Below, piece after piece: positions 770-49,530 of a DNA stretch of 64,000 nucleotides. Origin of the DNA: Mobula birostris (Eukaryota); NCBI RefSeq assembly GCF_030028105.1, contig NC_092376.1:44564935-44628934 (forward strand). The letters are read 5' to 3'. Numbering within the stretch: the stretch's first letter is position 1; the number at the start of each line of letters is the position of its first letter. Made by a program: the position numbers and the translations under genes. The notes beneath the pieces were generated by a model. That model ran no database searches and had not been told where the DNA came from. It was given only the letters and a program-made list of their open reading frames with translations.

Positions 770-895
770 TTATCAGGACTTGAGGCCCGAAATGTTGATT
801 GCTCTTTCCCTCCATAGATGCTGCCTGATCCGCTGAGTTTGTAGCGTTTTGTATGTGTTGCTCAAGATTTCCAGTGTTTGCAGAGTTTCTTGTAG
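770..895 (+). repeat. Degenerate copy of the Penelope-associated short repeat (hammerhead-bearing family)
   Basis: gcccgaaatgttgatt...ccatagatgctgcctgatccgctgagtt...ttttgtatgtgttgctcaagatttccag matches the repeat at 37500-37600 and 44836-44935. Confidence 0.7.
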
Positions 896-1004
896 CTTTA
901 ATAAGCAACTACCTTCCATACACTTCCTCAGCCTCCTTGACTTCCAGAAAACGTAATCCAAGGTGGCGCCAAGATCTGATTTATTTGTCTTCAAATTGTT
1001 TAAT

Positions 1005-1400
1005 TGTTTGACCTTTCTTTCTTTTTTAATCTTTTTATTAGTTTTCAAGTTCATAAACATAATAACAATAGTGATATAAAGAGATTGGAATTACATTATT
1101 GGTAATAAACATATACAAGAGAGACTACAAATAGTACAAGTGTAATAGACTTCCAAGCTCTTAATATAATTAATCATGAAGAGAAAAGAAATAAAAAGAA
1201 AAGGATATCACAAAGAAAAACCCCAAAAACAAAAAAAACAAACAAAACAAAACAGGGCTGAACCAATATATTAGATCGAATACATTCATTAATGTCGTCA
1301 ACTCCGCTCCTCAATTCATATATTCTAAGTTAATAAAAAGGATTTGGAAAAGGTCAAACTACGTCATATGAAAATATTGAATAAATGGCTTCCAAGAGAC
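1005..1400 (-). mobile_element. 3' end of an L1/Tx1-like LINE
   Basis: Minus strand reads SWKPFIQYFHMT* (L1-type ORF2 C-terminal W-x-PF motif), followed by a 3'UTR, AATAAA (tttatt ~1034-1039) and an A-rich tail. Confidence 0.6.
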
Positions 1401-1699
1401 CTTTAATTGTTTTTTGGGTTTGTAATGATTGTTTTCAGGACTGAGTTAGGAAGTAGGGGTCAGGCTGGGGATTAGGAACAGGGATACGAGGGAATCAGAG
1501 GAGTTTAAGCCTCTGCACTGATTTCAAAGATCATTGACATGGACATGGGACATCTGTGGTTGGACGTTGGACTGGCAGTGAGTGGACAAGGGCAATAGAT
1601 TGTTGGCAGGTTCCGGAGTTGGATTTCCATGCGGGCAGGAGGAACAAGTTCCAATGACCCCCCTAGCTTCATGAATCGATAAGACCGAAGTTCAAGATC

Positions 1700-2110
1700 T
1701 ATTATTCAGGATCCCATCATCGGCAAGCCCAAATTTCGATGATCAGCGTGTCGATGCCCGAGAGTCAAAGGTCGAGGCCTGTTGGCTAGAGCCGAGTCTG
1801 TGTGTCCACTGGGAAGTTCGAAGCACGGTCTCTGCTCGCCCGAGTCTGTGTCTGCTGGAGGCTGCAGGTCTGAATTGAGGTTAAGGGACTGTGTATGTGC
1901 ATGGGTGAGAGGGAGAGAGGATCGGGACTTGTTTATATGTTGTTGTGTTCTGCCAAACATTGTGGGCAAGCTATGTTTGCAGTGGAATGTATGGCAACAC
2001 TTGTGGGCTGCTCCCAGCACCCTCCCTGGGCTGTGTTGGTTGTTGATGCAAACACCGCATTTCATTGTATGTTTTGATGTACACGTGACAAATAACTTCG
2101 AATCTTGAAT
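1700..2110 (+). repeat. Interspersed repeat whose 3' half is shared with the SINE at 2555-2880
   Basis: ggcaacacttgtgggctgctcccagcac...tgtgttgg...gatgtacacgtgacaaataa resembles 2770-2875; ends in a gaatcttgaatc tail. Confidence 0.55.
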
Positions 2111-2134
2111 CAATACTGCAATAATTTGCTGAAC

Positions 2135-2490
2135 CTTGTGGAACAGTTACTACCCTTCAACCATCAGACTCTTGAACCAAAGGGGATAACTTCATTCAAC
2201 TTCACTTGCCCCATCATTGAAATGTCCCCACAACCAATAGTTTCACTTTCAAGGACTCGTCATCTTGCTTGTTTATTTATTTATTTGTTTGTTTGTTTAC
2301 ACAGTTTGTTATCTTTTGTATTTGCACAGATTGTTATCTTCTGCAGTCTTGCTGAACGCCTTAGCTGGATGGTATTTCATTGATTCTGTTATGGTTATTA
2401 TTTCATAGATTTGTTGAGTATGCCCACAAGAAACTGAATCTCATGGTGGTTTATGGTGACATTTGATAATAACATTTACTTTGAACTTTG
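2135..2490 (+). mobile_element. Rex1/Babar-like LINE 3' tail
   Basis: ggaacagttactacccttcaaccatcagactcttgaac (NSYYPSTIRLLN C-terminus) and a tail ending tttactttgaactttg; the same tail follows the RT at 53990-55255. Confidence 0.65.
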
Positions 2491-3144: not shown

Positions 3145-3280
3145 TAGAGCAAAAATTGCTGGAGGAGCTCAGCAGGTCTAGCAGCATCCATGGAGACAAA
3201 AGGATAGTTAACATTTCAGCTCGAGATTCCGTATAAATCCAGATCCAGAGTCTCTATCGGAAATATTGACCATCCATGAC
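3145..3280. repeat. Degenerate Penelope-associated repeat with a short inverted second half
   Basis: ttgctggaggagctcagcaggtctagcagcatccatggag...aacatttcagctcgaga followed by agagtctctatcggaaatattgac. Confidence 0.55.
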
Positions 3281-3925: not shown

Positions 3926-4963
3926 TTCAGTCTGAAGAGAATAAAAGCAGGGCCCTTGATGCACAGGCCGACACCACTGGACTTGAAGATGTTTTTAATA
4001 TGTGGCTTCCAGAGGAGAGTTACTTGTGAGTTGCAAAATTTCAAGCTGATACAAGCAAAATTTAAACAGCTTTCCTACAAATGGTTTGAAACCTCAGAGT
4101 ACCTTAATAAGTTTACACAAAGTTTTGATAAGGAAGTTTTATTTTCCAACCCCTCACACCTACACATCCTTGGAGAAATGTCACCTTGTTTTGGAATTGT
4201 TCTTGTGGATGGGATCAAATAAATGGGCTTTTGCTCCTTTCTTCCGTTCTGTGGTAATGAAGACTCTGAAATGATCAGAACTTCAATAAATGCCCTTACA
4301 TACAATAGTCATGTTGCAGCATTAGAAGAAGCCATTCAGCCAGTGAGTCAGTGTTAATTATATTGAGATAAGTTGGCACAGGTCAAATCTGTAATCAAAA
4401 CTGTAATCAAATCTGGAATGGAATTTTCCATTGAACTACAAAGACTCCATTCTGAAAGGCCTTGAGGTGTTTTGTTCTGCGTTTGTGACTTCAGTTTTTA
4501 TGGTTTGTGGTAAAACTAAAATTCTATAGATTCATGTTAATTGTGGTTCTACCAGAAACTATTAATATTTGGAATACTACAGTTGATTCTGGTATTTGTC
4601 AACATTTTTAGACAAAAATGCATGATCAGCATGATGAGATTGAACTTGCTGTTTTCACCTCAAACTATCATTGCACTCTGGATAAGACGGTCTGTCCTCA
4701 AGATGATATTTTTCCATGTTTGTGTATCTGTGTGGGGAAGTCAGTTGTTTGTTCTGGTTGGAGGTAAATATTTGGATTATCTGCAGTGTTGCAATGATGC
4801 CTTTAGCTTACTAGAAAACCTTAATTATTGTTGTTGTTCCAGTTTGAAATTTTGCAAATTGACCAATATAACAGAATCTTGTTGAAAAATTAATAATAAA
4901 TCTGTGAAGTTTACAGTAGATGTAATTTCAATATAAAAATAACACCAAAAATCAAAAACACAA

Positions 4964-5112
4964 ACACAAGAAATTCTGCAGATGCTAGAAATCCTGAGCC
5001 ACACACACACACAAATAACGACCCCCCGCCCCAGGAGGAACTCAGCAAGTCAGGCAGTACCTATGGAGTGGAATCAACAGTAGACAGTCTGAGCTGAGAC
5101 CCTTCATCAGGC
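4964..5112 (-). repeat. Penelope-associated short repeat with a decayed hammerhead motif
   Basis: Reverse complement reads cctgatgaagggtctcagctcagactgtctactg (CTGATGA retained, GAAA lost). Confidence 0.75.
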
Positions 5113-7320
5113 CAAAAATCAAATCTCGTTTAGAACAATTGATCATTGAATGATTTATTAATAGCAATTTTGTTTTTTCTGATCAACCCAAAGAAATGGC
5201 ATTGGAGTAACTTTAGGCCAGCATTCAATGCCTTTGTGATGTGACCATCTTGATAAATTGAGGTGTGTAATATGCCAGGTGCCCCGAGTTCCTTGCTGTT
5301 CTTTGTGAATGAGTGCTGCTGGTGAACTCTGGCAGGCTGTTTAACAGAGGAAGATATTAGAACCAGACATGATGATGATGTCATCTGATCCACACTGCAT
5401 TCCCTCAGTGGTACAGTTTCTGGTAGAGCCACAAATGCTATCAATGCATTTATTTTCTGTTGCTGACTTAAAGCTAATAACAGTTACTGGTGTTTGCCAA
5501 AATATAACGGTGACTAAAATGATAACGCAGAATTAGCAGCCAGCTGGGAATTGCAGTTGCTCATCAGGTTACTAACAGCGTTAGCATGAGAAGCCATGCT
5601 TTGTTTTTATCGCCACCAAATAAGCGACTGGGATTAATTATTCAATCCTAGGCCTGGTTGAGAGATATTAGCTATTGAAGTAGTTGGTTGAAGAGGCACT
5701 GTGCTGACACAGGCCAGTGGTTACCAAATTAGCAAACCAATGAAGAATGTGCTTTCTGAGAATGAAGTGCACAACATATTTTGGTTTGTCCCCTGAGTGA
5801 TGAGCTATTTTCTATTTATGACCCTCCCACCTGCATTGCAATGTGAGCACTGCACCTCCCAGCTTTCAGAAAATGCCAGTCTGCTGCCAGAACTTGCCCG
5901 AGGCAGGTTTTATTTATTGCATTGTACATTTCATCCAAACAGTCAACTGAGGATGCTTTCCTTTCTGAAGTGCCTTTTGAGATATTACCTAATGCAAGAG
6001 CAATTTAATTTCTAGAAAGCTGAACCTTGTCACTGTCCACAGGACTTGGGTATTGATGCATCATGACCTAGTTAGATTCATTACCCACAATGTTATTACA
6101 GAGCATGTTTTCTTTAAAGGGGAATTGTTACTATATTCTGGCCCTGCAAAGTGTGATCAATTACTAATGCAATACGAGTACAAATGTGCATTGAGCTCTG
6201 TCTAAATTTGCCATGGAATCACAAGCTTTAAATTCATGAAAGCTGATTGCTGCTCAGTGAACTCCTGGTTCTTTTTCTGTTAGTCCAGAGAGGTCAGAGC
6301 AGAGGTTAGATGCTTCCCATTGCTGGAGAGACAAGGTACTACTGAAATTCTGCACATTGTCTTGCAGATTATTTTGTAATTTCTGCATCTGAAAAAGCTC
6401 GCATTCTGAATTGAATTAATGTGCTTCCAAACTAATTTTTTTTGGAGGGGTGGGTCATAACTTACACTTATTTGTTTAAAACTAAAGGTTACACAATGTC
6501 CTTCTAAATATTGCAGTCATGTTCTAGATTTCCACTGCTATTGAAAAGAGAGGGAGTGAGGTCAGGACAATCATATGCATCTTGAGATCAAAGATGGGGT
6601 TTAAAGGAACTGAACACATAATATGAAGGAAAGGTTGATGAAGTCAAACAATATTGCCATTTTCACAGTGGAGGGATTTAAATATTTGCCTCGTGTTCAG
6701 TGATCTATTGCATTTTCTGCTGAAACAAACCACAGTCACTCACTTCAGGTAGAATAAGAGAGAAAACTTCAAAGGAGCACTGTTGAAAGTGACATTAATG
6801 AACTGGGGCAAATATTTTTAACTTTTTAACTAGGCTGAATACCAAGAATTCATATCCAAAGATATGTACTGGATGAAGTTAAAATTGGACCATTTGTTGT
6901 GTATGTCAGAATGAGAAACTGTGGCTCTGGAGTTTCAACTGAGAATTAAAAGAGAAAAAATCTGGCGTATGTACAGAATAATTAACATAATGGAATTCTG
7001 ATTGTATAGGCAGTCTAGTTTAGATGCAAATCAGTCAGCTGCCAATACCAATGGGTTAAGAGAGTGTTGAACTAATGGAAGAATGACAGCTCTTTAAAAC
7101 AATGGAAGCAGGCAACAATCCTCCCAGTCTGTGGGCAGCATTTCTTTACGCAGGGCCTCTAGATACTCTGAAACAGCAAGTGCTCATAAATGTGCTGTGC
7201 TTGGGAGTCCAATAGCAACTTTTTAACCCATTTTTGTACTGTAAAACTGATTGCGTTAGGCTAGTTTTTGTTTGCAGTTTTAAAGCTAGCATAAATTATT
7301 CAGCTGGATCATTTTTTTAA

Positions 7321-7350
7321 TTTTCTCTCTTTACTGCTATTAATACTCAG
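7321..7350 (+). promoter_or_regulatory. SACS: Splice acceptor of the SACS terminal exon (phase 1)
   Basis: Polypyrimidine tract ttttctctctttactgct, then taatactcAG|gt cga ctc tgt aca caa ctg cag, in frame with the 3846-aa ORF. Confidence 0.9.
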
Positions 7351-10300
7351 GTCGACTCTGTACACAACTGCAGTTGCTGACTCCCGAACGTTCTGCACGT
7401 CTTATCAAAGAAATGATGAATGCCTGCTGGCCTGGCAGAGAGATGATGGTGCAGTGGTCACCAGGAAGCCCAGAGAGGAAGCATCCACCAATGTCTTGGC
7501 TGACAACAGTATGGAGATATCTATATCATAACTTCCCTGAAGACCTGACTCTGTTTGAGGAGTTGCCACTGATCCCGAAGATGCCTTTGGATGAATCCCA
7601 AAGCACAGTCAAGCTTTTACGTCTCCGATCTCCTTCTCCCATAATCTTGGAATCTGAAAATGAAACGCAGCTCCCTGAGTTTCTAGCCGATGTCATTGAG
7701 AAGCTTGGTGGAGTTGCCATTAAAGAGCTAGACCCATGTTTGCAGCACCCCCTTATGAAAAAGTACATCCATTCTCCTCTGCCGAGCACCTTGTTGCAGG
7801 TCCTGGATAATGCACTGCCACAAAAGATTACCAGTCAGGTCATGTTGTTGCCCCCAACACATAAAATTGCACTTAGGTGTTTCTTAGCTAGTTTGCCAGA
7901 AGTTAATGAGCGAGACAAGAAAATTCTTCAGGAATTAATTATCTTTAACAAAATTGAACCATCCTCTGAGAAAAGTAGCCAAAGTTTTATTGCATTGAAA
8001 GGAAGTAAAGTCTTGCATCATACTGCAAAGCTTCTGCCAGACATACGGATGTCCATTCCTGTAATACATTGCACTGATGAAGCATCCATTCGGCTAGTTA
8101 CCTTGCTGAAAGCTGAACAACTAAAAAGTACGGACTGCCTAAAAATTATACTGCAGGACATTGAAAAAGGCTTTTATTCTAGTAAGGATGTAACAAATAT
8201 TGTATCTTGGATTCTCATTAATTTATCTTTTCTTAAAGATGAAAATGCTTTGTTTATAGAATGGCTGAAATCTTTGAAATTTATTTCTACTTCTCAGGGA
8301 AGATTACTGTCAGCTAAAGAGTTGTTTGATCCCAAAATAGAAACATTGCAGGATTTGTTTTATGCTGATGAAAAAACATTGTTTCCACCAGAGAGCTATA
8401 CCTCAACTCCAGATATTTTACATGCTCTGAGACAAATAGGCTTGAAGAATGAAGATCAGTTAACTGAAAAAGAACTCGTCCAAGTGGCCAAAAGAATTGA
8501 GGTACTGCAGAGCAGTAGCAAGTTTGAGCAGGAACTGGTTATCAGAAAAGCCAAGACATTACTAACAATTCTTCATAGACAAAAGACTTCACTGCTTTCT
8601 TCTGAAGCAAAGGCAACATTGCAAAAAATAAAGTGGGTTCCAGTTTGTAAGAAACGTCCTCTGAATTACCCACAATCCCTTGCTTGGAAAGGGGATGTAT
8701 TAACTTTCCACAAGGCTTGTGAAATGCGGGATATATCTGATGCAGTATTAGTTGGCTCTGCCGTGCCTCTTGTGGAGAACATCTCTGCTGCAGTTAGAAA
8801 ATTGCTAGGGTTTTCCACGGAACCCAGCTTGGACCGGGTTTTGGGGCACTTGAAGAATGTTGTGGATTGGCACAATTCCAAGGATTTCAATAACGATGAA
8901 TGGTACCAGTTTCAGCATTTCTTGCTTGACATTTATGACTTTATGCAAGGACATCTGGAGAAGGATAAAGAAGGGTTCAAATCATTGACCTTTCCCTGGG
9001 TATGGACGGGGAAGGTCTTTACTGTACCTGGACATGTAGCTACAAAACCCATAGAAGAACTTGATCTGGAGCCTTACCTATATATCCTACCAAAAACAAT
9101 GGCAAAATATCACAAGCTGTTTACGTTCTTTGGAGCACTGGAAGAAATAACAACCGAGCACATCTTCAATATTATTAAGATTATCAAACAGAAAAGTGAT
9201 GGTGAAATCACTGAGCAAGAAAGTAAGCAAAACTTACTTCTGGTACTAAACATCTTAAGGTGGCTGTACATCAATCAAATCACAGTTAATGCTGATACTT
9301 CAATACCTATTCATTACAGTAAAGATCCCAGCAAGCTGGTAATGGAGCCCATTAAGAACTGTAGTTACTGCGACATCAAGGTGGATGACCTCAGTGACTT
9401 GCTTGATGATTCATTAGAACCCATTAATTTGGTGCATGAGGACATTCCTATGAAAATGGCTGAGGCATTGCAAGTGCCCTGCCTTAGTACAAGGCTCATT
9501 AACCCAGAGAATTTAGGCTTTGAGCAATCTGGACAAAGAGAGCCCCTCACTGTGCGTATCAGAAACATTCTAGAAGAATATCCATCAGTTGCGGATATCT
9601 TCAAAGAGCTCTTACAAAATGCCGACGATGCTGAGGGAACTGAGTGCAGCTTCCTGATTGACATGCGGAGAAACTCGGATATCCGGGAAAACCTCCTAGA
9701 CCCAGGCATGGCACTGTGCCACGGGCCTGCTCTTTGGTCATTCAACAACTCTGACTTCAGTGATGCTGACTTTGTAAATATAACCAGGCTTGGTGGATCC
9801 CTGAAGAGGACTGAGGTTGACAAAGTTGGCAAGTTTGGACTTGGTTTTAACTCTGTTTACCACATCACAGATATCCCTATAATTTTGAGCCGTGAATTTA
9901 TGATAATGTTTGATCCCAATATTAGTCATTTGGGAAAGCATATTCGTGATAAAACACATCCTGGGATAAAAATTAATTGGAACAAACATCAGAAGAGATT
10001 AAGAAAGTTCCCCAATCAGTTCAAGCCATTTGTCAATGTCTTTGGTTGTGATTTGCCACTGGACAAGGAAAGACCCTTTTGCTATATGGGAACTCTTTTC
10101 AGACTTCCCTTTAGAGTGGAGGAGGAGGCATTAGTCAGTGAAATTAGCAATGTTTCCTATAATATCACTGATATTTATTCTCTTGTAGATGAGTTCAGTC
10201 TGTGTGGCCATAGGCTGATTCTCTTCTCTCAGAATGTCAACACCATGTTCTTAAAATACTTAAAATCAGAAGAATCTGATCCTGGCTTAGCACAAACTCT

Positions 10301-13300
10301 TATTGCAATCAAGAAAATCTTATGTTCATCAAAAGCTGTGACCACACCCATGAATATTTTAAAGGAGGCAGCAAAGTTGATGAAAACACTTGCCAATACA
10401 AGACAGCTTCCTTCTGAAGCGCCTCGGTGTGCCTGCATAGTGCAAATAGTGGTGCATGAATTTCTTCAGGTATTCCAAAGGATAGTTGATCTTCAGTCAC
10501 CTCTGTTCAGACTTCCAGATGATGGAGATTTCTTGGATTTTTCAGCAAAGGTAGCACACAGCAGGAAGGGAAGTGAAGAGGAACCCCCTGAAAAAATGAC
10601 TGAATCCACAACGTGGCTTATATGTTCATGCATGGATACTGAAGAAGCACTGATGTTTTCACTGCAGGAAAGTGGACGGAGATTGGGACTTGTCCCTTGT
10701 GGTGCTGTTGGTGTTCTGCTATCTGAAACAGAAGACAAAAAATGGAGCATCAAGACAAACGGTAGTGCTTACGGGGAAGTGTTCTGTTATCTGCCTTTGA
10801 GAATCAAAACAGGATTACCAGTGCACATCAATGGCTGCTTTGCAGTTTCCTCCAATCGGAAAGAAATCTGGAAAACAGATACTAAAGGCAGGTGGAACAC
10901 CATCTTCATGAGGCATGTGATAGTTCAGGCATATTTGGAAGCACTTGCTGTATTGCGGGACATGGCTGTTAATGCAGAGCTTGTTGATTACAACTATTAC
11001 ACACTATGGCCTGATATTACCTTGGTTCATGATGACTTTGCTGTGGTGTGGCAAGGTCTTTATGAGGACATAGCCAAAGGAAGAGGAAACAAGCTGACAG
11101 AGGTCTTCTCAGATGGAACTTCCTGGGTTTCCATCAAAAGCATAAGGTTCTTGGATGATACTTTGCTTCGTAGACCAGTCGTTGGGCCTTTGGCTTTTAG
11201 GATTCTCTTGCAGTTCCTCAAAAAGGCTGAGCCTCAACCACTGTGTGCTGTGGAACTTCCACCTTGGGTTAGAGCTGGCTTTGAAGAAGCAGGCTGCAAG
11301 AATATATTACTGGAAAATACATTTTCTGAGAAGCAGTTTTTTACAGAGGCATTTTTCCCATATATTGAAGAGATAGAGGCTGAGCTTCGTGATCCATTAA
11401 TGCTTTACATTCTCGATGAAAAGGTGTTGGAGCTTTCTGGGCTGCTGCGTACAACCTGTTGTATTCCATCGTCAGGAGAACAGCAACTGTTATCTGTTCC
11501 TTCAAGACTCATTCATCCTGAGGGTCGAGTTGCTAAGCTCTATGACATTAGTGATGGGAGATTCCCTTGTGGAACTACACAAGACTACCTGAACCCAGTC
11601 CGTCTAGTAAAGCTCGTACAACTTGGCATGATCAAGGATGATATATCCTGGGAAGATATACTGGAACGAGCGATGTCTGTGGCAGCACTAAATGAAAGTG
11701 ATCATGCAGCAGCCTGCCTCCGGAGCAGCATCATACTCAGTTTAATTGATGAGAAATTAAAGTATCGGGACCACAGAGCTAAAGACTTTGCTGTGAAATT
11801 CCAGTCTGTACCTTTCCTTCCTTTCCTTAAAAAGCCTCCAGGTTTCTCATTACATTGGAAAGGAAATGATTTTCAACCTGAAACTCTATTTTCAGCTAAG
11901 GAGGTGTACGCACTTGAGTACCAGGAGATAGTTTGTCTTCTGCAGCCGATTCTAAATGAAAATCCTCCCAGTAAAGGGTGTGGTACCCTGTCATCGAGTG
12001 TTAAAGATTTTTTGGGGTTGTTAAAGAAGCCACCTATTCTTGTAGTGTTAGAACAGCTGAAGAAAGTAGCCACTGGCTTTGATGGCATTACTCTTTGCCA
12101 AGAGAACATAACAAATGCTTGTTACAAATATCTTCATGAAGCCATGATGAAGAATGAAGGTGCAAAAGTGCAGATCAATGGGGAACTTGAAAATTTTGCC
12201 TTTGTTCTGGTTGAGAACACTTACGTTGAGTCAGCGAAGGTTGCCTTCCACTTGAATTTTGATGCAACTCCCTACCTTTACCAGCTTCCAAACAAGTATA
12301 GGAACAATTTCCGTGAATTCTTTGAAAAGCTGGGAGTTCAATCCTCATTCACAGTTGAAGACTTTGCATCAGTCCTTCAGGTCTTAAAAACTGAATGTGA
12401 TCCTGAATCACTAAGTGAAAATAATTTTCAGCTTTGCCGAAGAATCATTAGTGAAGGAGTCTGGGGTCTCATTAGGGAGAAAAATCGAGATTACTGCAAG
12501 CGAAAATATGGAACCCTTTTGTTACCAGATGGTGATGGATTTCTTGTTCCAGCTAAATCTTTGTGCTACAATGATTGTCCTTGGATTAGAGTGCGCGATA
12601 AGAGTGTGAAATATTGTCACCCTGATATTCCAAGAGAGGTGGCTGTTAAGCTGGGGGCATTACCAAAACGTCATAAAGCCCTAGAGCGCTATGCTTCCAA
12701 TATTTGTTTCAGTACCCTTGGCAGTGAATTTGGACAGAAAGAGAAACTGACCAGTAGGATTAAAAGCATTCTCAATGCGTATCCTTCTGAGAAAGAAATG
12801 CTAAAGGAGTTGCTTCAAAATGCAGATGATGCAAAAGCCACAGAAATCTATTTTATATTTGATCCCAGGGAGCATCCAGGAGATCGAATCTTTGATGAGA
12901 AGTGGGGACCCCTCCAAGGTCCTGCAGTTTGTGTGTACAATAACCAACCCTTCACAGAAGATGATATTAGAGGGATCCAGAACCTGGGAAGAGGGACAAA
13001 GGAAGGGAATCCTGGCAAGACTGGGCAATATGGAATCGGATTTAATTCTGTGTATCACATAACCGACTGCCCGGCATTTATTTCTGACAACGACGTCCTC
13101 TGTATTTTTGATCCCCATGCTAAGTATGCACCCGGATCTACCAATGTCAGCCCTGGAAGGATGTTCAGAGATTTGGATTCAGACTTCAGAAATCAGTTTC
13201 ATGATGTATTGAGTCCGTTTTTAGGTAACCTCTTCAAACTGGAAAATGCTACAATGTTTAGGTTTCCAATACGAAATGCAGAGATGGCCAAAATATCTGA

Positions 13301-21767: not shown

Positions 21768-21856
21768 GCAACTTCAGTATATATGTGTCATCATTACTGT
21801 AATTGTTACAATAGTTATAGTTACGGTATTGTTGTATTATTGGTTCATTCCTGAAC

Positions 21857-35855: not shown

Positions 35856-36180
35856 CCGTGGACTGATTGAGGATAGTCCACATGGCTTTGTGTGTGGTAG
35901 GTCATGTCTAACCAATCTTATATACGGTAAACCTTTTTGAGGAAGTTACCAGGAAAGTTGATGAATGGGCAATGCAATGGATGTTGTCTGCATGGACTTC
36001 AGCAGGGCATTTGACAAGGTCCCACAAGGGAGGTTAGTCAAGAATGTTCAGTTGCTCAGCATTCACGATTAGTTAGTAAATTTTATTAGATATTGGATTT
36101 GTGGGAGAAGCCAGGAGGCCTGTGACTAGTGGAGTGCCACAGAGATCGGTGCTGGGTCCATTGTTGATTGTCATCTATGT
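35856..36180 (+). mobile_element. CR1 RT fragment
   Basis: gatagtccacatggctttgtg..ggtaggtcatgtctaacc..atggacttcagcagggcatttgacaaggtcc..actagtggagtgccacagagatcggtgctgggtcc. Confidence 0.85.
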
Positions 36181-37192: not shown

Positions 37193-37600
37193 CCCAATGC
37201 CCTGCTAATGCCCCGCCTCCCCCTCGTACCCCATCCGTTATTTATATACACACATTCTTTCTCTCACTCTCCTTTTTCTCCCTCTGTCCCTCTGACTATA
37301 CCCCTTGCCCATCCTCTGGGATTTCGCCCCACTCCCCTTTTCCTTCTCCCTGGGCCTCCTGTCCCATGATCCTCTCGTATCCCTTTTGCCAATCACCTGT
37401 CCAGCTCTTGGCTCCATCCCTCTCCCTCCTGTCTTCTCCTATCATTTTGGATCTCCCCCCCCCCCCCACTTTCAAATCTCTTACTAGCTCTTCCTTCAGT
37501 TAGTCCTGATGAAGGGTCTCGGCCTGAAACGTTGACTGTACCTCTTCCTAGAGATGCTGCCTGACCTGCTGCGTTCACCAGCAACTTTGATGTGTGTTGC
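37193..37600 (+). mobile_element. Penelope-like element 3' tail with terminal repeat
   Basis: Pyrimidine-rich tail closely similar to 44535-44935, ending in the hammerhead-bearing repeat. Confidence 0.8.
37501..37538 (+). ncRNA. Minimal type I hammerhead ribozyme motif (intact core)
   Basis: Stem I AGUC (37502-37505) pairs with GACU (37534-37537); core CUGAUGA (37506-37512); stem II AGG-gucucgg-CCU; GAAA (37526-37529); minimal palindromic stem III ACGU; NUH site GUU, cleavage after 37533. Confidence 0.75.
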
Positions 37601-37845
37601 CTGTACAGAAGGGACAGTTTACACATGAACTAGAGGGGTTCTATTCTCCTGGCAGGAAGGTTTGTTAATGCTGCACGGTGGGGTTTAAATTGATGTTGCA
37701 GGAGGATGGGAACCAGAATGCCAGTGGAGAGGTTGTGGAGGCAAATGTTGGTAAGACCTCAGACAAAGTCAGGAATCAAAAAGTTGAACATGGTGTGACT
37801 AGTGTGCTGAGCTGTGTATATTTCAATGCAAGAGGTATCACAGGA

Positions 37846-38070
37846 AACAAGAGAAAATCTGCAGATGCTGGAAATCAGAGCAACACACACAAAATGCTGG
37901 AGGAGCTCAGCAGGCCAGGCAACATCTCTGGGAAAATAAGTACAGTCGACATTTCGAGCCGAAACCCTTCCACCAGTCTGGAGAAAAAGGGCTGAGGAGT
38001 AGATTTGAAAGGTGGGGGAGGGGAGAGAGAACCGCCAGGTGATAGTTGAAACTTGGAGGGGGAGGGATGA
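37846..38070 (-). repeat. Penelope-associated repeat and tail
   Basis: aaatctgcagatgctggaaatc..acacacaaaatgctggaggagctcagcaggccaggc..cagtcgacatttcgagccgaaacccttc. Confidence 0.8.
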
Positions 38071-40264
38071 AGCAATGGTGTATGCGCACAATTCACACAT
38101 TCTATTGCAACATATATCAAGTTAAATATTAAAATATTAAATATCTAATGCCATAGCAACAGGCTGTAATTGATAGTATGCTCATATAGTTAAGAATGCT
38201 GCTTGTGGAGTAATCACTCCTGCTGACTTTGCTAAGCTATTTGTATATTCCCAGGGATGCAAAGTTATTCTATCCTTTTAATTCATCATACGCACTTAAC
38301 AGCTTCTTCCTTAATAAATGGTACACTCTGTGGAATTTGCCTCTGACTCCTTGTATCAGAAGATTCAAAACTAGTTGAAAATTTTTGGAAAAGGTTGTGA
38401 ATACTGCTAACTGATCCTTGAACAGGAGATTGTATTTGGACCTGTTCCTCAGCAATTTACATTTCCAGTTCATTCATACTATTCTGTATAAACTCTGAAG
38501 GCATATTTATGCCTGTGGTGCATGGTCTAGTAAACAGAGCTGACGAATATTGTTTATTGTCCACTTTCCTTTGCAGTTCTCCAGCGTTCATATGTTCAGT
38601 TTTGGTTAATTGAAAGATCTATTATTCCCATTTGCAATATCATTTTCTTTCAGAACAGATTCAACCTCTTTCGAAAATTTCCAACTTTAATTCTATCAAT
38701 TGTAAATGTGATTGAACCTTGTCACTGGGCTGAAGTAACTCAATTTTTTTTTAACATACCGTTATTTGTATGTCAATGGAGCATATTCCAGAGTGAAAAT
38801 TTGTAGTTTTCACCAATGTGTATTTTTCATCTGAGTGGTTGGTATCAGGGAGAAAGAATTTATTCTTTAACTCAGACACCAAATACTTCTCAGTATCATG
38901 CCTATGATATTGAGATTCTTTCCACATGGTGCCACTTCTTGATGTATCTGATTTTTTTTGTCTGAATATTTTGTTCTAACTGAAGTGTACTTGCTGAGCA
39001 AATCCACCCTTAAGGGTGTTTGTCTGGGGTTGATGATGCTAGACAGACCTTTTCCCCACCTTTTAAAGCACTATGTTCAGAAGTGTTATGGGAAATTGTT
39101 CATGTAGATTAATTTTTCAGATGTGACTGTACTGAATGAATGAGCGGATGTTTTCTTGCAACATTCACAACCCAGATGATCAGGAAAAGATTTCTCAAAG
39201 GAACCTTCTCTTAAGTCTTTGTTTTCATTCAGAGCTTCTTTGGCTTTTCAGATTTTGTATTAATAAAGGCTTGAGTTGCATGATGTTGTTTTCTGTTTGG
39301 TTGAAACACAATAATTAATTCTATACTACTTCCCAATACGTTCAGTACATCTAAAAGAAACTGCCACAGTCAAGTCTTTGCCATAAGCACACATTTTAAA
39401 AGTGCAAGTTTACAAGTGAGTCGGCTGTTACCATTTCACCTCTGTAAAATATTTCCAGATATTCATTTAGTAACTGTAATCTTATGGTGGGTGAACTGAA
39501 TAGTGCCTGTTCTGTGTCACTAGAATGATGCTGATTCTGCACCTCATCTGAATTGGCAAGCTGCCCAGACATTCCAATGTTGGTGGATAGATGGAAATTT
39601 AGGTCAGAATATCATGTAGCTGTAACAATAGATTCACTTTTAAAGCTGTTGTATCTTTTCACTATTTTGTTTCCATGAAGTTGATTTCTGAAAAGGCTAC
39701 CCAACTGCTGTGATATGGAACTTGACAGGTTAGTCCAACATGACAGGCAAGTGATCAGCCATCAGTCCTTCAATGTGAAAACTGAACACTTGAATGCCTA
39801 CAGCATATTTACAATGGTAGGCTGCACACACTGACAGAGAAAAAATATTCCTGAAAAGATAAATTTATTCCAATCTGACAGGGCACAATGGAAACTGACA
39901 GGGATTCTGAACGAGTGGGCAGCATCAGATGCATATACAGATGAATAACAATAGCTCAAGTTCACTCTGAGCTCTGCTGAACAAACACAGCTACAGCCTG
40001 AACACAGCTATAAAAATTCAACCATCTTTGATATTACACTGTTTTCCAATGAGTTTCCACATAGTATGAAGAAGTTTCCCAATTTTCCTCAGCAGAACCT
40101 TTTGCCTGATGTTTTACCCACTCACTTTAACTTTCTCTAACTAACTTGTAGCGCCTTCATCCCAAACGTTAACAACTTACTTTCTTAGCAATCTTCATGT
40201 CATCAGCTAATTTAACACCAACATCTTTGGCCCCTTCATCCAACTCAGTTGTGTAACCGTAGAA

Positions 40265-40510: not shown

Positions 40511-40582
40511 CTTGGAAATGCACACACAAAATTGTGAGGAACTTAGCAAGTCATGTAGCATCTGTGAAGGAGAATAAACAGG

Positions 40583-40936
40583 TGTAATGCCCTGGTTAAG
40601 ATTTCTACCATAATGCTGTAGATATTTCATTTTAACAGTTTCTGCAGAAGGAGTATGCCCTGCTGGTAGAATGTTTTAGCTTCGGCTAACGATGAGGAAC
40701 CCTGCTGCTCAATTTAGGAATGTTGTGTTAGCCAATTAGGATGGCAGAATCGGGAGAAAGTTCTAGAGAGTGGGACGGAAAGAGATTTGTGATGGACGGT
40801 AGTCTGGGATCTTTTGGGCAGGAGCTGCAGAAAGGACAGGAGGGAAGATGGCTGAGGATGCTGGGGGAAGGAGTGTCCCTGTTACACAAAGTGCTTTGTG
40901 CAGATGAATGGCTCCAAGGAGGAAGGGCCAATACTC

Positions 40937-40983
<47 letters not shown>

Positions 40984-41451
40984 TGTTTGCTTGAGATGGA
41001 TTTCAAGCGAAACTCAGAATGTGGTGTGTACTTTCATGCAGACCGTGGGTCCAGCACGAGTGAAAATACAACTTCACAATGAGCTCCAATTTCATGTGCA
41101 CATTTGGACTGGTCTAAGCGTAATGGGCTTTTTTGTCCTTTTCTTTTTCTTACTAACTCTTTGCTAAAGCTGAAATTTGTAAATACACTTCCTTTATAAT
41201 TTTATGTGGTGTACGATTTGTTATTTCTTGCGACTTATTAGTGTGTATGGGTAGAATTTACACAGCATTCGCTGAAATTGAGGTTTCTTTAATCAGAACA
41301 TCACAATATTCCTGTTTGGTTGAACCCAAATCATCCTGATCTTAGACAAATATTGATTATGAAAGGTGGCCTTCTCATTGCTGAGTCCCTTGGCTGTTAG
41401 CAAAGACGGCTAGTGAGCCAAGTTTGCATATGAGCGCGGTGCGGGGTTACA
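40583..41451. mobile_element. Solo LTR
   Basis: Termini TGTAAtgccc...ggggTTACA; flanking 4-mers cagg/caag (near-perfect TSD); cleanly interrupts the host repeat. Confidence 0.75.
40939..40981. repeat. (GA)n microsatellite within the LTR
   Basis: About 21 uninterrupted GA units. Confidence 0.97.
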
Positions 41452-42070
41452 CAAGCAAGGTTTTGACCCCAGATCCCTCATCAGGACTGGAAAGGAATGG
41501 GGCGAAAGCCAGAACGAGAAAGTTGGGGAAGAAGCAGGACAATAAGCTGGCAGGTGATAGGTAAGATCAGGTGAGGGGAGGAGGAGGGGATGAAGTAAGA
41601 AGCTTGTGGTGATAGGTGGAAGAGGGAAAGGGCTGAAGAGGGAATCTAATAGGAGAGGACAGTGGATCATAATGTAAAGGGAAGGACAAGGGGAGCCAGT
41701 GGAATGTGATAGGTAGCTGAGGCGAAGGGAAGAGGTGAGAGGTAATCAGAGTGGGCCATGGAAAAAGAGAGAAAGGAGTAGTAGGGGTGGAATTAGAGAA
41801 ACCCATGTACATACCAGCAGGTTGGAGTTACCCAGACAGAATATGCAGTGATGCTCCTCCAACCTGGCTTGAGCCTCATCATGGCAGAAGCGGAAGCCAC
41901 AGATAGACATGCCGGTATGGGAATAGGAAGTCAAATTGAAATAATCGACCATAGGTGGCTGTTTATTGCCCTCCATAGATGCCAGCTGACTTGATGAGTT
42001 CCTCCAGCATGTTGTATGTGTTGCTGGACATTTCCAGCAAACGCAGAATCTCTTATGCTTATGAAAGATG

Positions 42071-42169
42071 AGACACTTGGATTCACTCTACAGCACAGCA
42101 CTTAAGTGTATCCTTTCCTGGTTGTTAAGATGCACTAAGTGCTGTGCTGTAGAGTGAATCCAAGTGTCT
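42071..42169. repeat. Perfect 34-bp inverted repeat (hairpin)
   Basis: agacacttggattcactctacagcacagcactta (42071-42104) versus taagtgctgtgctgtagagtgaatccaagtgtct (42136-42169). Confidence 0.95.
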
Positions 42170-42342
42170 GTTTCCTGGTCGCCAGCCAAACATCTATCCA
42201 TGCCATTAGATCAACTTTGATGTGGCTCTTTGTTAGAAGCCTTGTAGAAATCCAGGGAGAGTAAATCCACTGACTCCTGTATCAGTAGTTCACGTTACTC
42301 AAAAGAGCTACAATATGCTGGTTAAATATTATCTCAGTTTCA

Positions 42343-42500
42343 CAACAACACACACAAAATGCTGGAGGAACTCAGCAGATCAGGCAGCGTCTATGGAAAA
42401 GAGTAGACAGTCGACATTTTGAGCTGAGACTCTTCATAGGACTGGAACGGAAGGGGGAAGAAGCCAGAATAAGAATGTGAGGTAGGCGAAGGACGATAGC
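42343..42500 (-). repeat. Penelope-associated repeat with a hammerhead remnant
   Basis: Reverse complement reads ccagtcctatgaaGAGtctcagCTCaaaatgtcgactg. Confidence 0.8.
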
Positions 42501-42548
42501 CAGAGGGTAATTTCACAACATAGAGCAGAAGAAAGCACTGGGTCCTGC

Positions 42549-42788
42549 TGTAGGGTAATGTAATTAGTGGAAACGTACATAATTCACAGCCACCCACATT
42601 GGTTTGGGGCTCACTTTAAAAACCTGATCTGACGTGATGCCATAATTACGTAAAATACTTTTACCGACGTGATGCCATAATTACGTAAAGTACTTTCACC
42701 ATGCAGTGTTTGGAGTACAATAAATGAGTTGCTATGGTTTTCCTTAAACATAAAATGCCTCTGCCGTTTTTATTCGTGAAAACCTACA
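42549..42788 (+). mobile_element. Short solo-LTR-like element with an internal 35-bp tandem duplication
   Basis: Ends TGTAGG...CCTACA; AATAAA near 42719; gacgtgatgccataattacgtaaa twice at 42631-42700; no clear TSD. Confidence 0.5.
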
Positions 42789-43739: not shown

Positions 43740-46035
43740 TGACTGTTCTTTTTTTTGTCCAGCTTCAAGGTGCAATTAATTAAAGTGGGCCTGGTCAATC
43801 CTCTTTTAATTGCTCTTGTGTGTCATCCACCAAAAATACATACTCGATTTTTGGACTTCCCCTCAAACACTATGCCCAGACTGAGTTCTGATTTTTGGTG
43901 ATTTTAATATTCATGTTTGTTGTCCCGCTAAGCCTCTCGTAAGTGATTTTATGCATCCGGTTGAGTCTTTTAATCTTGCTCTGCTTATTACTGGACCCAC
44001 TCAGAAGCAAGGCCATACACTGGGATGTGGCATTAAAATGTGTGGCCACTGGAGATCCTGCTTCCTCTGGTGGACAGAGCATTGGTGTTCAGTGAAGTGG
44101 TCTCCCAGTCTGCGTCGGGTCTCACCAATATATAGAAGGCCACACCGGACACAGTATATCACACCAGCCCTTACACTTCCTCCCTCACCACCATTCAGGG
44201 CCCCAGACAGTCCTTCTAGGTGAGGCAACACTTCACCTATGAATCGGCTGGTGTGATATACTGCATCCGGTGCTCCCGATGCGGCCTTCTATATATTGGT
44301 GAGACCCAACGCAGATTGGGAGACTGCGTCACTGAACACCTACGCTCCAGAGGAAGCAGGATCTCCCCATGGCCACACATTTTAATTCCACGTTCCATTC
44401 GCATTCCGATATGTCAATCCACAGCCTCCTCTACCGTCGAGATAAAGCCACACTCAGGTTGGAGGAACAGCACCTTATATTCCATCTGGGTAGCCTCCAA
44501 CCTGATGGCATGAACATTGACTTCTCTAACTTCCGCTAATGCCCCTCCTCCCCTTCTTACCCCATCCCTATTTTATTTATTTATTTATTTTCCTCTCTTC
44601 TCCTCTCATATTAACTCCTTGTCTGTTCTCCATCTTCCGCTGGTGCTCCCCTCCCCCTTTCTTTCTTCCAAGGCCTTCCATCCCATGATACTCCCCCTTC
44701 TCCAGCCTTGTATCCCCTTTTTCTAATCAACTTCCCAGCTCTTGGCTTCATCCCCTCCCCCTCCTGTCTTCTCCTATCATTTTGGATCTCCCCTCCCCCT
44801 CCCACTTTCAAATCTCTTACTATCTCTTTTTTCAATTAGTCCTGACAAAAGGTTCTCGACCCAAAACATCGAATATACTTCTTCCTATAGATGCTGCCTG
44901 GCCTGCTGCGTTCCACCAGCATTTTGTGTGTGTTCCCATTCTTTTCTCTATATATATGCCTCCCCTCGGCCAAATCATTCAAAAATATGACATTTCTTTT
45001 CACTGTTATGCTGACAACGCACAGCTTTATCTCCCCCGAAACCAAACGACCAGTCAAATCTAGCCAGCCTCATGAACTGCCTTGAGGACATAAAGTGTTG
45101 GATGGCACAAAACTTCTTACAGCTGAATGAAGGCAAGTCTGAAGTTGTCCTATTTGGCCCCCCTGACTCCATCAAAGTGATTACCAACAGTCTTGGTAAC
45201 CTGTCCACCCTTTCCAAACCCCATGTCAAAAACCTTGGTGTGATACTTGATTCCACCTTTAAGTTTGACAAGCAAGTTAATGCAGTAGTAAAAGCCAGCT
45301 TTTTCCAGCTTCATACTATTGCCAAAATCAAGCAGTTTCTCTCTTTCAAAGATCTCGAGAAAGTCATCCACGCCCTTATATCTTCCCGCTTGGACTACTC
45401 CAACTCCCTGTATACTGGGATTAGTCAGTCGCCCCTGTCCCGCCTGCAACTGATCCAGAATGCCGCAGCCAGGCTCCTGATAGGTGCCCGGAAGAAGGAC
45501 CATATTACTCCTATCCTGGCCTCCCTCCTCTGGCTGCCAGTACAGTTCAGAATTGATTTTAAGATCCTCCTGTTTGTTTATAAAGCCCTAAATGGGCTGC
45601 CCTCCCCCATATCACAGACCTTCTAACCCCTTATTCTACTTCTAGGTCCCTCAGGTTGGCTGACTTGGGGCTCCTGGCTGTCCCGCGATCAAAATTTAAG
45701 TTCAAGGGTGACTGCACCTTTGCTATTGTAGCCCCTAGACAGTGGAACAGCATTCCCCTCCCAATCAGATCTTCCTCCTCCATCGACTCTTTTAAATCCA
45801 GGCTCAAAACTTACTTTTGTTCACTAGCGTTTGAATCCTCCTGATGTGGCTGATTTTTGGCTTGTGCCTAGGCCCTTGTGTTGTGTCTTTTGTGCCTATA
45901 AGCTGTTTGCTTTGTTGGTTAAATCTGTGTTTCTTGTATTTGTGATTTTAGCTATCTGCTCTGATCTGTACAGCACTTTGGTCAACTTGGGTTGTTTTTA
46001 AATGTGCTATATAAATAAATTTGACTTGACTTGAC
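43740..46035 (+). mobile_element. L2-clade LINE (endonuclease 43740-43995; RT C-terminus 44935-45840) interrupted by a Penelope-like element
   Basis: GDFNIHV..GPTQKQGHTL; HCYADNAQLY; CLEDIKCWMAQNFLQLNEGKSEV..SRLDYSNSL..HITPILASLLWLP; (ttgac)n tail at 46021-46035. Confidence 0.9.
44020..44935 (+). mobile_element. Penelope-like element with an inverted 5' segment
   Basis: Plus strand FTYESAGVIYCIRCSRCGLLYIGETQRRLGD (GIY-YIG); minus 44020-44170 is an inverted copy GVIYCVRCGLLYIGETRRRLGDHFTEH; terminal repeat at 44836-44935. Confidence 0.9.
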
Positions 46036-48026
46036 ATTTTTCCATAGATGCTGTCTGGCCTGCTAAGTTCCTCCAGCATTTTGTGTGTGTTGCATTCTGC
46101 AGATTTTCTCTTTGTAATAAATATTGCGTTTGCTTTTGTAGAAGAGCTGGGAAATATCATTTCTCATTTTCGGCACAATCTCTGATGTTTCATTAGCAAG
46201 CACAGGAGAAATGTTGAAGTTGTCAGTATATCAGATGCTTTTTATACACTGAAGAGGGTTGAAAAACACATTGGTCAGATATTTCATTCATGCCAAAGTT
46301 GTTGTTAATTCTAGTTTCCCAATGTCTTTGAATCATCTTTCAATTGTCTTGCTCTTCATCAAAAGAGCACTAAAAATAAACAAGTACTTCACATTTATCC
46401 AAGCAAATTAAAAATGAACTTGCAATTCAGCAACAGTAACTACCTATGAAATTTAACGAACAATATCATTTCCGTACAGCTTTCCGTAGAAAGAGGGCAT
46501 AGTGTATGCATGCAATTCACACATTCCATTGCAGTGTATATCTAGTTAAATATTAAAATCACAAAGTTATTACATTCACTTCAATATGCACTAAAGGATT
46601 TTACTGCAGTTATGTCTACAGGCAGGAACAGTTGTAAAAATGTCAGTATCAATCTCTAATTTCAATAACATCAGAATGTGAGCATATTGTCAAAAATATT
46701 AGCTGAGAAATTACCTCTTGTAGTTGCAATATAATACCATATTAATTATTCTGCTCTAATTTTACCAAAAGCATATATGCAATAATATACCAGAACTGTC
46801 TCTTAGTGACACAAACAACATCATGAAACCTCTTGAGTCGGGTGGAAGGTACATGCATTTGTATTGGAAAAGTTCCCATATCCCCTAAAACAAATATGCT
46901 ATGTGCTTTCCATATGCCAGTCAGCCTCCAAATATCATAACTGATAATTCAGCTACTTCAGTACTTAATTCCTTGACAAATAGGTTTAATCTGCATTGCT
47001 ACCTCAGACTTTTCTTTGCACTTAGAAGGGAAATAAGTTTCCCAGTGTTAGGTATATTTGTATTTTGAACTGTGAAATGAAGTATCAACCCTTCTCAGAA
47101 AAATGGTAACTGCATTGAAGTGAAACCTCAAACCTTCAATAGAAATGATAATCAACACTTTCTGGGGAAGAAGAGGAACTCTGAAATGACCCTTTCCACC
47201 TTCTCCAATATAAAACCATCAATGCCTTTGCTCACATAACCTTTTTATTTCTTCTAGTATTTCTCTCTCAACTCCCTCTACTCCCCTTTTCAGTTCCTAT
47301 TATCTCCCCATTCGCCAACTTAAATGTCACAATTTCTTATTTCTGATGACACAGATGGAAGGTACATCAAAACCTAGCTTAGATTACATTTCAAGTCTAC
47401 AAATACTTCCTCCTATATCACACATTTCACAAATATACCCTTACACAGACATAGAATAGATTCCATGGAAATACGTGTGGACAACGGGGCAAAGCTTTGA
47501 GCAGCATCCAGTTGAACCTTCTGGAACCTTAAGCCAAAGCAGGGACCTCCTTTCAGTTTGAACAGTGATCTGCCTCATAGGAAACAGTGCTGACAAAACC
47601 GTTGTGCTTTATAAGTTCAGAGGTTCTTCCATTGCCCAGAGGGAAATAATTGTGTGGACAACACAATACGTTTTTTGACAGTTATTACAGATGCAAGACG
47701 TTTAAGATGCAGGGAGGACAACTGATACCTTTTACAGATCACTGGTTACATACCAATGAGAAGAATGTGTATGGCACACTTTTTTTTCCTTTACCTAATA
47801 TTTGAATTCAATATTTAAACAAAATAGGGTCCCATCTAGCTTACTAAGTGTCTCTCTTTTAAGGACAAGATGTACAGGTATTGCTCCAAATGAACAGTAT
47901 GACATTTTTATAATATAAAAAAATTATAAAATGTTTTATAATATAAAATTTACAATGCTATATATGATGACTTTAGAGCAAAATGTTACATATTTGAGTT
48001 GAAGTTTATAGCTAAGCTGGGAGGTG

Positions 48027-48263
48027 TGTTGTGTAGTTAATATTGCCATAATATTTGAGTAAAATTGTAAATATATTGTTTGATTAAATATTTTCATTTG
48101 TTTACATCATTCATTATGGGTTATATGTGAGAAGAAGGTGAATTGCATATGTTATTATGCCACCATTTCATATGTGAGTGCCACACTAAAGAAAAGAACT
48201 AAGTACATGAGTATTGTCGGTTCCTGTGTTTTTTTATTAGTTTCTGAAGTTAGAAAACATAAT
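48027..48263 (+). mobile_element. Probable Gypsy-type LTR
   Basis: Purine-rich tract gctgggagg, then TGTTGTGT... AT-rich body ending gaaaacataa. Confidence 0.45.
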
Positions 48264-48297
48264 CGGTTTCTTCCTAAGTGCAGCTGCTGCTTGGACC

Positions 48298-48585
48298 ATG
48301 ATCTTGGCCCTGCTTGAGCTATTTGGACTGCAGCAGGAGATAGGCGCTCCTAGCATATAGAGGATTGTCTAGCCTTTGCCCAAACCTCACTTCCACAATG
48401 TGATCTGCGATTTAATATCACTCCTCTAGGTCACCAACCTGGGCATTGCGACATTAGTGCACACGGCTTGCTTCCTCGCCGTGCCCTTTGTATGTCCGAT
48501 GCAGTACTTTCACTGGAGTAGGAGGTGGACGGTGACGCCTCCAAATGCAGACGGATCAGAGTGTCATCAGTCACGGTGTGACCAG
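48298..48585 (+). pseudogene. Putative first exon of a decayed plus-strand gene
   Basis: accATG start and 96 codons in one frame up to a consensus phase-0 donor CAG|GTGAGT; three in-frame TAG; hydrophobic VTNLGIATLVHTACFLAVPFVC followed by WSRRW. Confidence 0.45.
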
Positions 48586-48849
48586 GTGAGTGTCAGCAGA
48601 TAAGTAGCATCTTCTCCTTGGTGTTAGCAAACTTGCACAACTCGGATTTAAATCTGGCCAAAAAGCCAGAGATTTTCATTGAGGACAGGGAGCACTCATG
48701 GAAGGAGCAATGGATTTAACGATCCAGGTCAATAGTCTCCAATCAGAACTGGATATTTGAAAAAAACATGTGGGTTTTAAGTTAGGATGTAGGGTGCAAA
48801 GAACGTACCCTGCCTGTGGGTCCAAATGATGACACGTCTGTCAGAGAAA

Positions 48850-49530
48850 TCGATTGGAAGATGGAATATGAGGTGTTGTTTCTCCTCCCTGATAGTGGCC
48901 TCATCATGGCAGCAGAGGAGGCCATGGACCAACATCTCAGAATGGGAATGGGAATTGGAATTAATGCAGTTTGGCCACTTGTTGTGGATGGAGTGAAGGT
49001 ATTCGATGAAGCATCCCTCCAAATAATACTAATAAGTATTACATCTTTGTGCTGCATCCAAACGGAAATGTTTAGCATTCTCAAATTATTGAGCCCCAAG
49101 GGCCTTAGGTGGCCAACCAGGATGATGAAGTTTTGCTCCTTGGGCTTACATTAAACTTGAGTGGAACCGAGATACCACGTGCTGTGTCCTGAATGCCGTA
49201 TATAAAATTGGACGATACTGGGGGAATGACTGCTTCACCAGACAGGAGTTTGGGTCAGTGGAAAATGAAGAGGAAAATGAGCACATGTGGCATCTCCTAC
49301 CATTGCATGGAAAAATGTAGTGAGAGGGAAGTGGCTGGTGGAGATGGAGGAGTGAGATGGAGTGATGGAGAAAGTAGTCTATACTGAATACTGAAAAGAG
49401 ATGCAGATTTAATGCTTCAGACAAAGGGTTTCCAATTTGAACCGTTAACTCTGCTTCACTTTCCACAGATGCTGTCCGACCTCCTGAGTATTTCTGATCA
49501 TTTTTATTTAAGATTTTCAACACTGCAGTT
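48850..49530 (-). mobile_element. Degenerate Penelope-like fragments
   Basis: ORF 48777-49022 CFIEYLHSI..HSHSEMLVHGLLCCHDEATIREEKQHLIFHL; FPCNGRRCHMC; repeat remnant at 49415-49530. Confidence 0.7.

Follow-up and report, generated by a model that had tools for sequence, protein, structure and literature searches.

Hammerhead ribozymes in the terminal repeats of Penelope-like elements (PLEs), as well as dispersed truncated copies of such elements, were already described in 2014. According to the accessible parts of the literature, to which all statements on published work here and below refer, most minimal hammerheads occur singly and some lie near each other on opposite strands, probably as truncated PLEs (PMC4209133). 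PLE insertions are characterized by truncated 5′ ends that adjoin an inverted copy, by an optional tail of 30-40 bp and by target site duplications (TSDs) (PMC8557442). For the anole PLE Poseidon, two internal start sites of reverse transcription have been reported, one on each side of the tail. Cutting and extension affect both DNA strands, and insertion still takes place with hammerhead mutants (PMC11167929). Here we describe a family of short hammerhead-bearing repeats, a new case of this class, in a 64,000-nt stretch of the ray Mobula birostris (GCF_030028105.1, contig NC_092376.1, positions 44,564,935 to 44,628,934). This whole stretch, which includes part of the gene SACS, is referred to as the window.

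The repeat module and its probable parent element

We consider it very likely that the repeat module is the hammerhead-bearing terminal repeat (pseudo-long terminal repeat, pLTR) of a Neptune-type PLE and that its copies are decayed end-pieces of this element, likely inserted by the element's own reverse transcriptase (RT) and GIY-YIG endonuclease and likely neutral since then.

The module was defined with a profile built from 12 copies. Searching the 64-kb window with this profile gave 23 rows, 17 of them with E<0.01. Five of the 17 are not seed copies (E 1.7e-13 to 0.0036), and the best match on the reversed window, used as a control, has an E value of 0.12. The 17 matches were grouped into about 13 insertions (I1 to I13), which by approximate spans occupy about 7% of the window. 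An initial annotation, made from the sequence alone, had listed over a dozen copies and had called the module the most abundant short repeat of the window. Each of its coordinates has a profile match, and in an all-against-all self-BLAST the module reaches a multiplicity of 12, compared to at most 5 for segments without a module copy. A decayed copy at 48682-48753 had been absent from that annotation, and beyond 49535 no further module occurs in the remainder of the window. The majority consensus of 16 aligned copies, from which the 48682 copy was excluded, agrees with the consensus given before. A pattern search for further copies gave no match in viral contigs, in prokaryote genomes or in metagenome contigs.

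GIY-YIG coding sequence was detected by tblastn in four of the 13 insertions, with remnants at five places (32109, 41827, 44020 and 44151, 48828), and all GIY-YIG fragments found sit within module-bearing insertions. Three other insertions retain 65-310 nt of a pyrimidine-rich 3′ untranslated region (UTR), of which there are at least three subfamily versions (66-81% alike). The observed order, from GIY-YIG through the pyrimidine-rich UTR to the module, is colinear. Upstream of the 32697 copy there is a frame of 111 aa with one stop, starting at 32109; this tail shows 56-70% identity to six relatives with E<=0.001 among 27 candidates, all six named from Mobula hypostoma and Hypanus sabinus. The relatives P0003-P0006 carry a CX4CXXC linker ahead of the same endonuclease tail, and the linker is also found in a minus frame of window 49001-49430. 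In the longer relatives RVT_1 is followed by GIY-YIG (five of five scanned), and they align to the window fragments at 28-57%. With Pfam, no match was obtained on the window fragment; the 70%-identical relative P0003 matched GIY-YIG with an E value of 4.6e-4, below the curated cut-off. As a zinc-finger linker of the form CX2-5CXXC marks Neptune and Nematis and not Poseidon (PMC8557442), the element is predicted by its linker to be of the Neptune type, with Neptune and Nematis not separated by a tree.

The anatomy of the insertions is that of PLEs, with variable 5′ ends and lengths of about 55-800 nt. An inverted piece adjoins the 5′ end in five of 13 cases (15 nt in I1; also I4, I9, I11 and I13). 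Of the 15 3′ ends that were inspected, 8 carry a tail of about 35 bp, which in I4 and I9 is restricted to one of the two arms; there are two classes of 3′ end, with and without tail. I3, I7 and I10 lie between TSDs of 10-13 bp (p<=0.005 in comparison with random windows); the three units that they enclose measure 155, 407 and 163 bp and differ in their 5′ ends. The link to Penelope machinery that had been drawn initially is thus borne out, and both the copies following GIY-YIG tails and the inverted pairs are real.

Several points weigh against this reading. No RT-coding part and no full-length parent were found in the window by tblastn, so that the parent element is predicted from its relatives. 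Six of the 13 insertions consist of the module only. Ten of 13 have no significant TSD (I5 is borderline, I2 and eight others have none). Between 6 of 15 and 8 of 16 5′ ends fall within 22 nt, unlike what purely random truncation would give. Only one window was sampled, giving 16 aligned copies, and their boundaries were set partly by eye. We also compared contigs from 4 of 22 listed sequencing runs with window 18100-38099. In favour of the PLE reading, 57-123 contigs from other loci extend upstream of 37502 into a pyrimidine tract in three of the four runs; the agreement of these loose ends is only 0.41-0.50, and thus many such contigs may keep only about 15 nt of the UTR. Summed contig depth peaks in the bin with two modules in four of four runs; this is not a copy number and was not used.

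The insertions I1 to I5 are short. I1 (766-895, plus strand) consists of a short PLE end (784-862) with a tail (863-895), preceded by an inverted piece of 15 nt from the hammerhead 5′ half (766-780, 13 of 15 identical). I2 (3149-3229, minus strand) starts in stem II and has no tail. I3 (4957-5111, minus strand) starts 1 nt before the CUGAUGA box, has a tail and is flanked by a 12-bp TSD (4945-4956 and 5112-5123, p 0.002). I4 (20888-21103) is a head-to-head fold-back of a minus arm without tail (20888-20972) and a plus arm with tail (20974-21103). I5 (21845-21952, plus strand, without tail) has its 5′ end between 21845 and 21859 and a TSD-like 10-mer with one mismatch (p 0.054). At its 5′ junction there is a perfect short hairpin (21838-21862), which resembles the result of template switching that placed the flank in inverted orientation in the hammerhead core.

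Among the insertions further downstream, I6 (32091-32832, plus strand) is a 5′-truncated PLE with GIY-YIG (32109-32441, plus strand, one in-frame stop), 3′ UTR, hammerhead remnant and tail, and it lies inside another LINE-type repeat. I7 (37193-37599, plus strand) is also 5′-truncated, starts near the stop of the open reading frame (ORF), lacks a tail and is flanked by a 13-bp TSD (37180-37192 and 37600-37612, p 0.001). I8 (37845-38075, minus strand) comprises about 95 nt of 3′ UTR, a broken hammerhead, the module and a full tail. I10 (42348-42510, minus strand) comprises about 65 nt of 3′ UTR and the module without tail, between copies of a 10-bp TSD (42338-42347 and 42511-42520, p 0.005). 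I12 (46036-46112, plus strand) is a short end piece that starts downstream of the hammerhead, has a partial tail and abuts the end of another LINE-type fragment.

Three insertions combine a coding remnant with an inverted piece. I9 (40515-42062) has a minus-strand body with a GIY-YIG end (41827-41955), UTR, hammerhead (41452-41489) and remaining module (40521-40582), and at its 5′ end an inverted plus-strand short copy with tail (about 41945/41957-42062). The body was split by a later LTR-like insertion at 40583-41451. This element of about 870 bp is solo-LTR-like in that it ends in TG...CA and is flanked by a 4-bp repeat containing one mismatch; it sits a few bases downstream of the I9 hammerhead cleavage site. 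Beside the I9 tail there is a short palindromic element (42071-42169) with inverted arms around a 25-nt core. In I11 (44021-44937, plus strand) a frameshifted GIY-YIG region (44151-44536) is followed by UTR and module, and an inverted GIY-YIG piece (44021-44169) is found at the 5′ end. I13 (48682-49535) has an old minus-strand body with the CX4CXXC linker near 49300, GIY-YIG at 48828-49214 and the decayed module at 48682-48753; an inverted plus-strand short copy with tail (49416-49535) occupies its 5′ end.

Two of the ray gene models, P0005 and P0006, which are named as kinase-domain protein and mucin-2 isoforms, end in the endonuclease sequence of this PLE. This is probably annotation read-through into PLE copies.

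State of the hammerhead

The consensus has helix I with 5 bp, the CUGAUGA box, one extra A after A9, helix II with 4 bp, the pair G10.1-C11.1, the GAAA box and a palindromic ACGU helix III before the cleavage site. Judged from sequence, it is a minimal type I hammerhead as reported for PLEs (PMC4209133). Pairing is seen in 84% of the cells, compared to 14-51% in slid controls, for a structure that was drawn from the same consensus. An Rfam scan of the window gave no match to a hammerhead family; its two rows are both mir-3202, far under the gathering score, and lie on the fold-back hairpin.

None of the eight aligned copies that span the core is intact at all 13 conserved positions, where 0.5 would be expected under neutral decay, and the 48682 copy, which is outside the alignment, also reads broken. 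Both core boxes are exact only in the 37506-37529 copy, the one family member among 13 pattern matches. This best-kept hammerhead (37501-37538, in I7) has C11.1 changed to U, a GUU cleavage triplet at 37531-37533 and a one-pair helix III without tandem partner; its folding z of 0.0 is uninformative for so small a motif. Outside CpG positions, 20 of 122 core cells have decayed compared to 78 of 525 downstream non-ribozyme cells (p 0.67), while at CpG positions the count is 43 of 111. The core decays at the neutral rate, the same as its flanks. On these sequence features, the copies in the window are not working ribozymes now.

Variation in stem II had been taken as covariation. There are three double changes in 91 helix cells, compared to 2.2 in shuffles (P 0.36), and in a second alignment two in 76 cells, a level reached in 323 of 500 shuffles. 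The AGG/CCU variant at 37513-37525 is one C-to-T change at a CpG, seen in a shifted register with the 5′ strand unchanged. The GAG/CUC variant near 42420-42435 (I10) is a true double change; this copy has lost G5 and G12, and its stem II C-to-T change also occurs alone in four other copies. The initial annotation had asked for a covariation test and a count of intact cores, and these came out at shuffle level and at none of eight. The outcomes it had named as speaking against itself (no covariation, no core enrichment beyond neutral decay, standalone copies as truncated autonomous elements) are largely those found. Of its proposal that ribozyme motifs were seeded at high density, the density of the copies stands; a seeding of working ribozymes is not supported.

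The same annotation had called the module retrozyme-like. By definition, a retrozyme comprises two or more units that follow one another head-to-tail, each with a complete hammerhead (10.64898/2026.07.22.740005; PMC7229834). It could be argued that each copy is a monomer from a non-LTR retrozyme spreading via self-cleaved, circularised RNA from tandem arrays, as the hammerhead is of type I with a palindromic ACGU helix III, which is needed for dimeric cleavage (PMC4209133), and as vertebrate retrozymes are pLTR-derived and present in the one chondrichthyan tested (10.64898/2026.07.22.740005). However, no head-to-tail array of the module was found among the 11 TRF rows or in the hit map of the window, no copy in the window is circularly permuted at the cleavage site, and no core is intact. 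Seven or eight of the nine short copies begin upstream of the cleavage site, and at most one of nine could start there (the I9 inverted arm, with its ambiguous boundary). The contig table of shared begin and end places is empty, and contigs are uninformative on circular RNA either way. We therefore regard an origin from retrozymes as very improbable.

Origin of the short copies

The short copies are colinear with the ends of the GIY-YIG-bearing copies and align end to end with the PLE terminus, having no unique head. The initial annotation had placed them in a separate SINE-like (short interspersed nuclear element) family. Such a family of about 100-150 bp, derived from the pLTR and maintained by its own short master genes, would explain the standalone copies. 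The module-only insertions and the clustering of 5′ ends at the hammerhead could be read this way, I3 is a complete TSD-flanked unit beginning at the core, and non-autonomous PLE derivatives do exist in Chlamys (PMC8557442). However, distances among the short copies are similar to those between short and long ones (0.318 compared to 0.336, permutation p 0.26, with low power at 15 copies), and the only candidate for a column diagnostic of short copies is shared with a GIY-YIG-linked copy. ARAGORN reported no genes and Rfam no match to a Pol III head in the window, both methods being weak on decayed heads. The 5′ ends are spread over about 22 nt, clustered but not fixed, and short copies also serve as the inverted partner of GIY-YIG bodies (I9, I13). 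A separate family is thus unlikely. What survives of the family idea is that the short copies do not start at random.

By local alignment, eight of the nine short copies start within a stretch of 22 nt that covers the hammerhead 5′ half and stem II. The scan-corrected P value of this clustering is 0.0004-0.001 with all ends and 0.002-0.006 with hand-set ends; it is 0.01-0.03 if one I4 arm is dropped and two ambiguous ends are placed downstream. Among the 15 joints and 12 between-letter rows listed, three resemble head-to-head junctions at other loci with a forward arm that starts in this stretch too.

Published work on PLEs offers the components of a possible explanation. The endonuclease nicks the target, RT begins at one of two internal sites, which exclude or include the tail, and extension is possible on both strands; cleavage by minimal hammerheads depends on a partner copy or a protein. 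Transcription of Penelope starts inside the pLTR (PMC2377424; PMC6765202). For the element in the window, the transcript would begin in the pLTR at the first stem of the ribozyme. The element's endonuclease would nick the target, with reverse transcription primed internally at two sites. A cDNA primed about 105-140 nt downstream would run off the RNA 5′ end and be inserted as a short module, while longer copies would come from tandem read-through RNA or from a template jump. Ribozyme activity would be confined to the RNA of the parent element and would be absent from the window copies. That the RNA starts at the first stem, that the short module is the run-off product and that long copies arise by read-through or template jump has, in our view, close to an even chance, leaning slightly to the doubtful side. 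The end of the inverted piece of I1 at the first A of helix I would fit such a start. An initiator-like YYANWYY fits the module start in six of six aligned UTR-linked copies; as this motif also matches 1.1% of positions, with 6-7 instances per UTR, its support for a start site there is weak.

In a tentative wider version, which we hold with some reserve, the module would be a strong-stop-like product that is integrated alone or as an inverted partner. The short copies, which would number thousands in the genome, would then record the RNA start and the two priming sites of a Neptune element, long copies would need an LTR-like template jump, and fold-backs would give host 3′ UTRs, such as that of SACS, hairpins similar to those of inverted Alu pairs, which may be subject to adenosine-to-inosine (A-to-I) editing. 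In a literature search we found no account of this ray family or of strong-stop products of PLEs in the accessible text; the supplements of PMC4209133 and of 10.64898/2026.07.22.740005 may list the family.

A different last step, with the same PLE origin, is conceivable although rather doubtful. The short copies might stem from RT stalling or switching template at the folded hammerhead, or from a splice junction before it. In each of the six aligned UTR-linked copies the core is preceded by a pyrimidine tract and then AG, the intron 3′ end of Drosophila virilis Penelope maps at helix I (PMC4209133), and the fold-back junctions recur at other loci. A stall, however, would be expected to leave ends at the 3′ side of the fold, and those observed are on the 5′ side. 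The AG is contained in the inverted piece of I1, whose end falls exactly on the first A of helix I, and a spliced upstream exon is seen in no copy.

The class of element brings nothing new in itself; interest lies in the clustering of 5′ ends and in the UTR hairpin described below, both based on small samples. If the clustering holds genome-wide, the ends of copies would map RNA start and priming sites, and the regeneration of pseudo-LTRs and inverted partners by PLEs could be studied cheaply in this way. There is also a caution for annotation: the consensus of the module in a repeat library would resemble a ribozyme-bearing SINE, although no copy in the window is intact.

SACS and neighbouring repeats

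The open frame 7344-18914 (3856 aa) codes for sacsin (Pfam SACS 1e-155, HEPN), and 7351-18914 on the plus strand is the giant last coding exon of SACS. An acceptor AG at 7349-7350 was read from the sequence. As the frame opens behind this acceptor, I1-I3 appear to be intronic, one in sense (I1) and two in antisense orientation (I2, I3). Contigs of three studies, guessed to derive from RNA, extend from the coding exon to I4 or through it and stop at 21742-21769. These stops coincide with an AATAAA at 21762-21767, and I5 begins about 80 nt beyond. We take this as a weak hint that I4 is in the SACS 3′ UTR and I5 just outside. The initial annotation had assigned copies to the intron and UTR of SACS; this agrees for the intron and for the pair at 20888-21103, and the copy at 21859 is probably outside the UTR.

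The I4 pair folds into a hairpin of about 85 bp (-114.9 kcal/mol, z -11.7), and neither arm has a complete sense-strand hammerhead. In two runs that are otherwise letter-identical to the window, contigs over 20266-21026 differ from it at 14 and 12 letters, while three other contigs of those runs (881, 492 and 742 nt) have no differing letter. At 20901, 21027 and 21073 contigs break, each time on an A; outside the hairpin this is the case for one of four breaks. Differences and breaks hint at A-to-I editing of the hairpin; another haplotype or assembly errors would fit as well. PLE fold-backs such as this one might bring edited double-stranded stretches into ray mRNAs. I4 is spanned by one continuous contig of a run with about 2% divergence, so that the insertion seems to be shared among close relatives.

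Other repeats occur in the vicinity. The regions 27238-31708 and 38186-40087 share several blocks of 71-81% identity in colinear order and represent a local duplication. As contig depth drops nearly to zero in part of this duplication, it is not a high-copy repeat. A 35-bp tandem pair is located at 42631-42700. Between 50285 and 62721 there are dense fragments of LINE-type RT in both orientations, with inverted arms of 641 nt (56595-57235 and 58803-59443).

Comparison with described systems

Of the systems described, the minimal type I hammerheads in the pLTRs of metazoan PLEs (PMC4209133) correspond to the consensus; helix II has 4 bp here compared to 7-8 bp in Schistosoma, and the copies in the window are all decayed. 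Animal non-LTR retrozymes (PMC7229834; 10.64898/2026.07.22.740005) are similar in being small and non-coding, with a type I hammerhead and a relation to PLE pLTRs. They differ in forming tandem complete units, whereas the copies analysed here have broken cores and occur dispersed or head-to-head but in no case head-to-tail.

Like Poseidon of Anolis, PAc (PMC11167929), the ray element has 3′ ends of two classes, which are separated by the tail and lie slightly more than 100 nt past the hammerhead, and in the accessible part of that source, as here, there is no sign of copies beginning at the cleavage site. PAc belongs to a different clade, and its start sites are in an AC-rich loop within the ORF; at the counterpart place in the ray the sense strand is GU-rich and no ORF has been shown to start in the module.

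The units with endonuclease (EN+ PLEs) of Neptune and Nematis (PMC8557442) resemble the ray element in the C-terminal GIY-YIG and the CX4CXXC linker; they are likewise strongly truncated at the 5′ end, next to which an inverted copy lies, and bear a tail of 30-40 bp at one end. In this window, unlike there, neither a partial tandem nor a full-length copy is present, and the clustering of 5′ ends at the hammerhead, which we did not find described in the accessible part of that paper, distinguishes the ray family.

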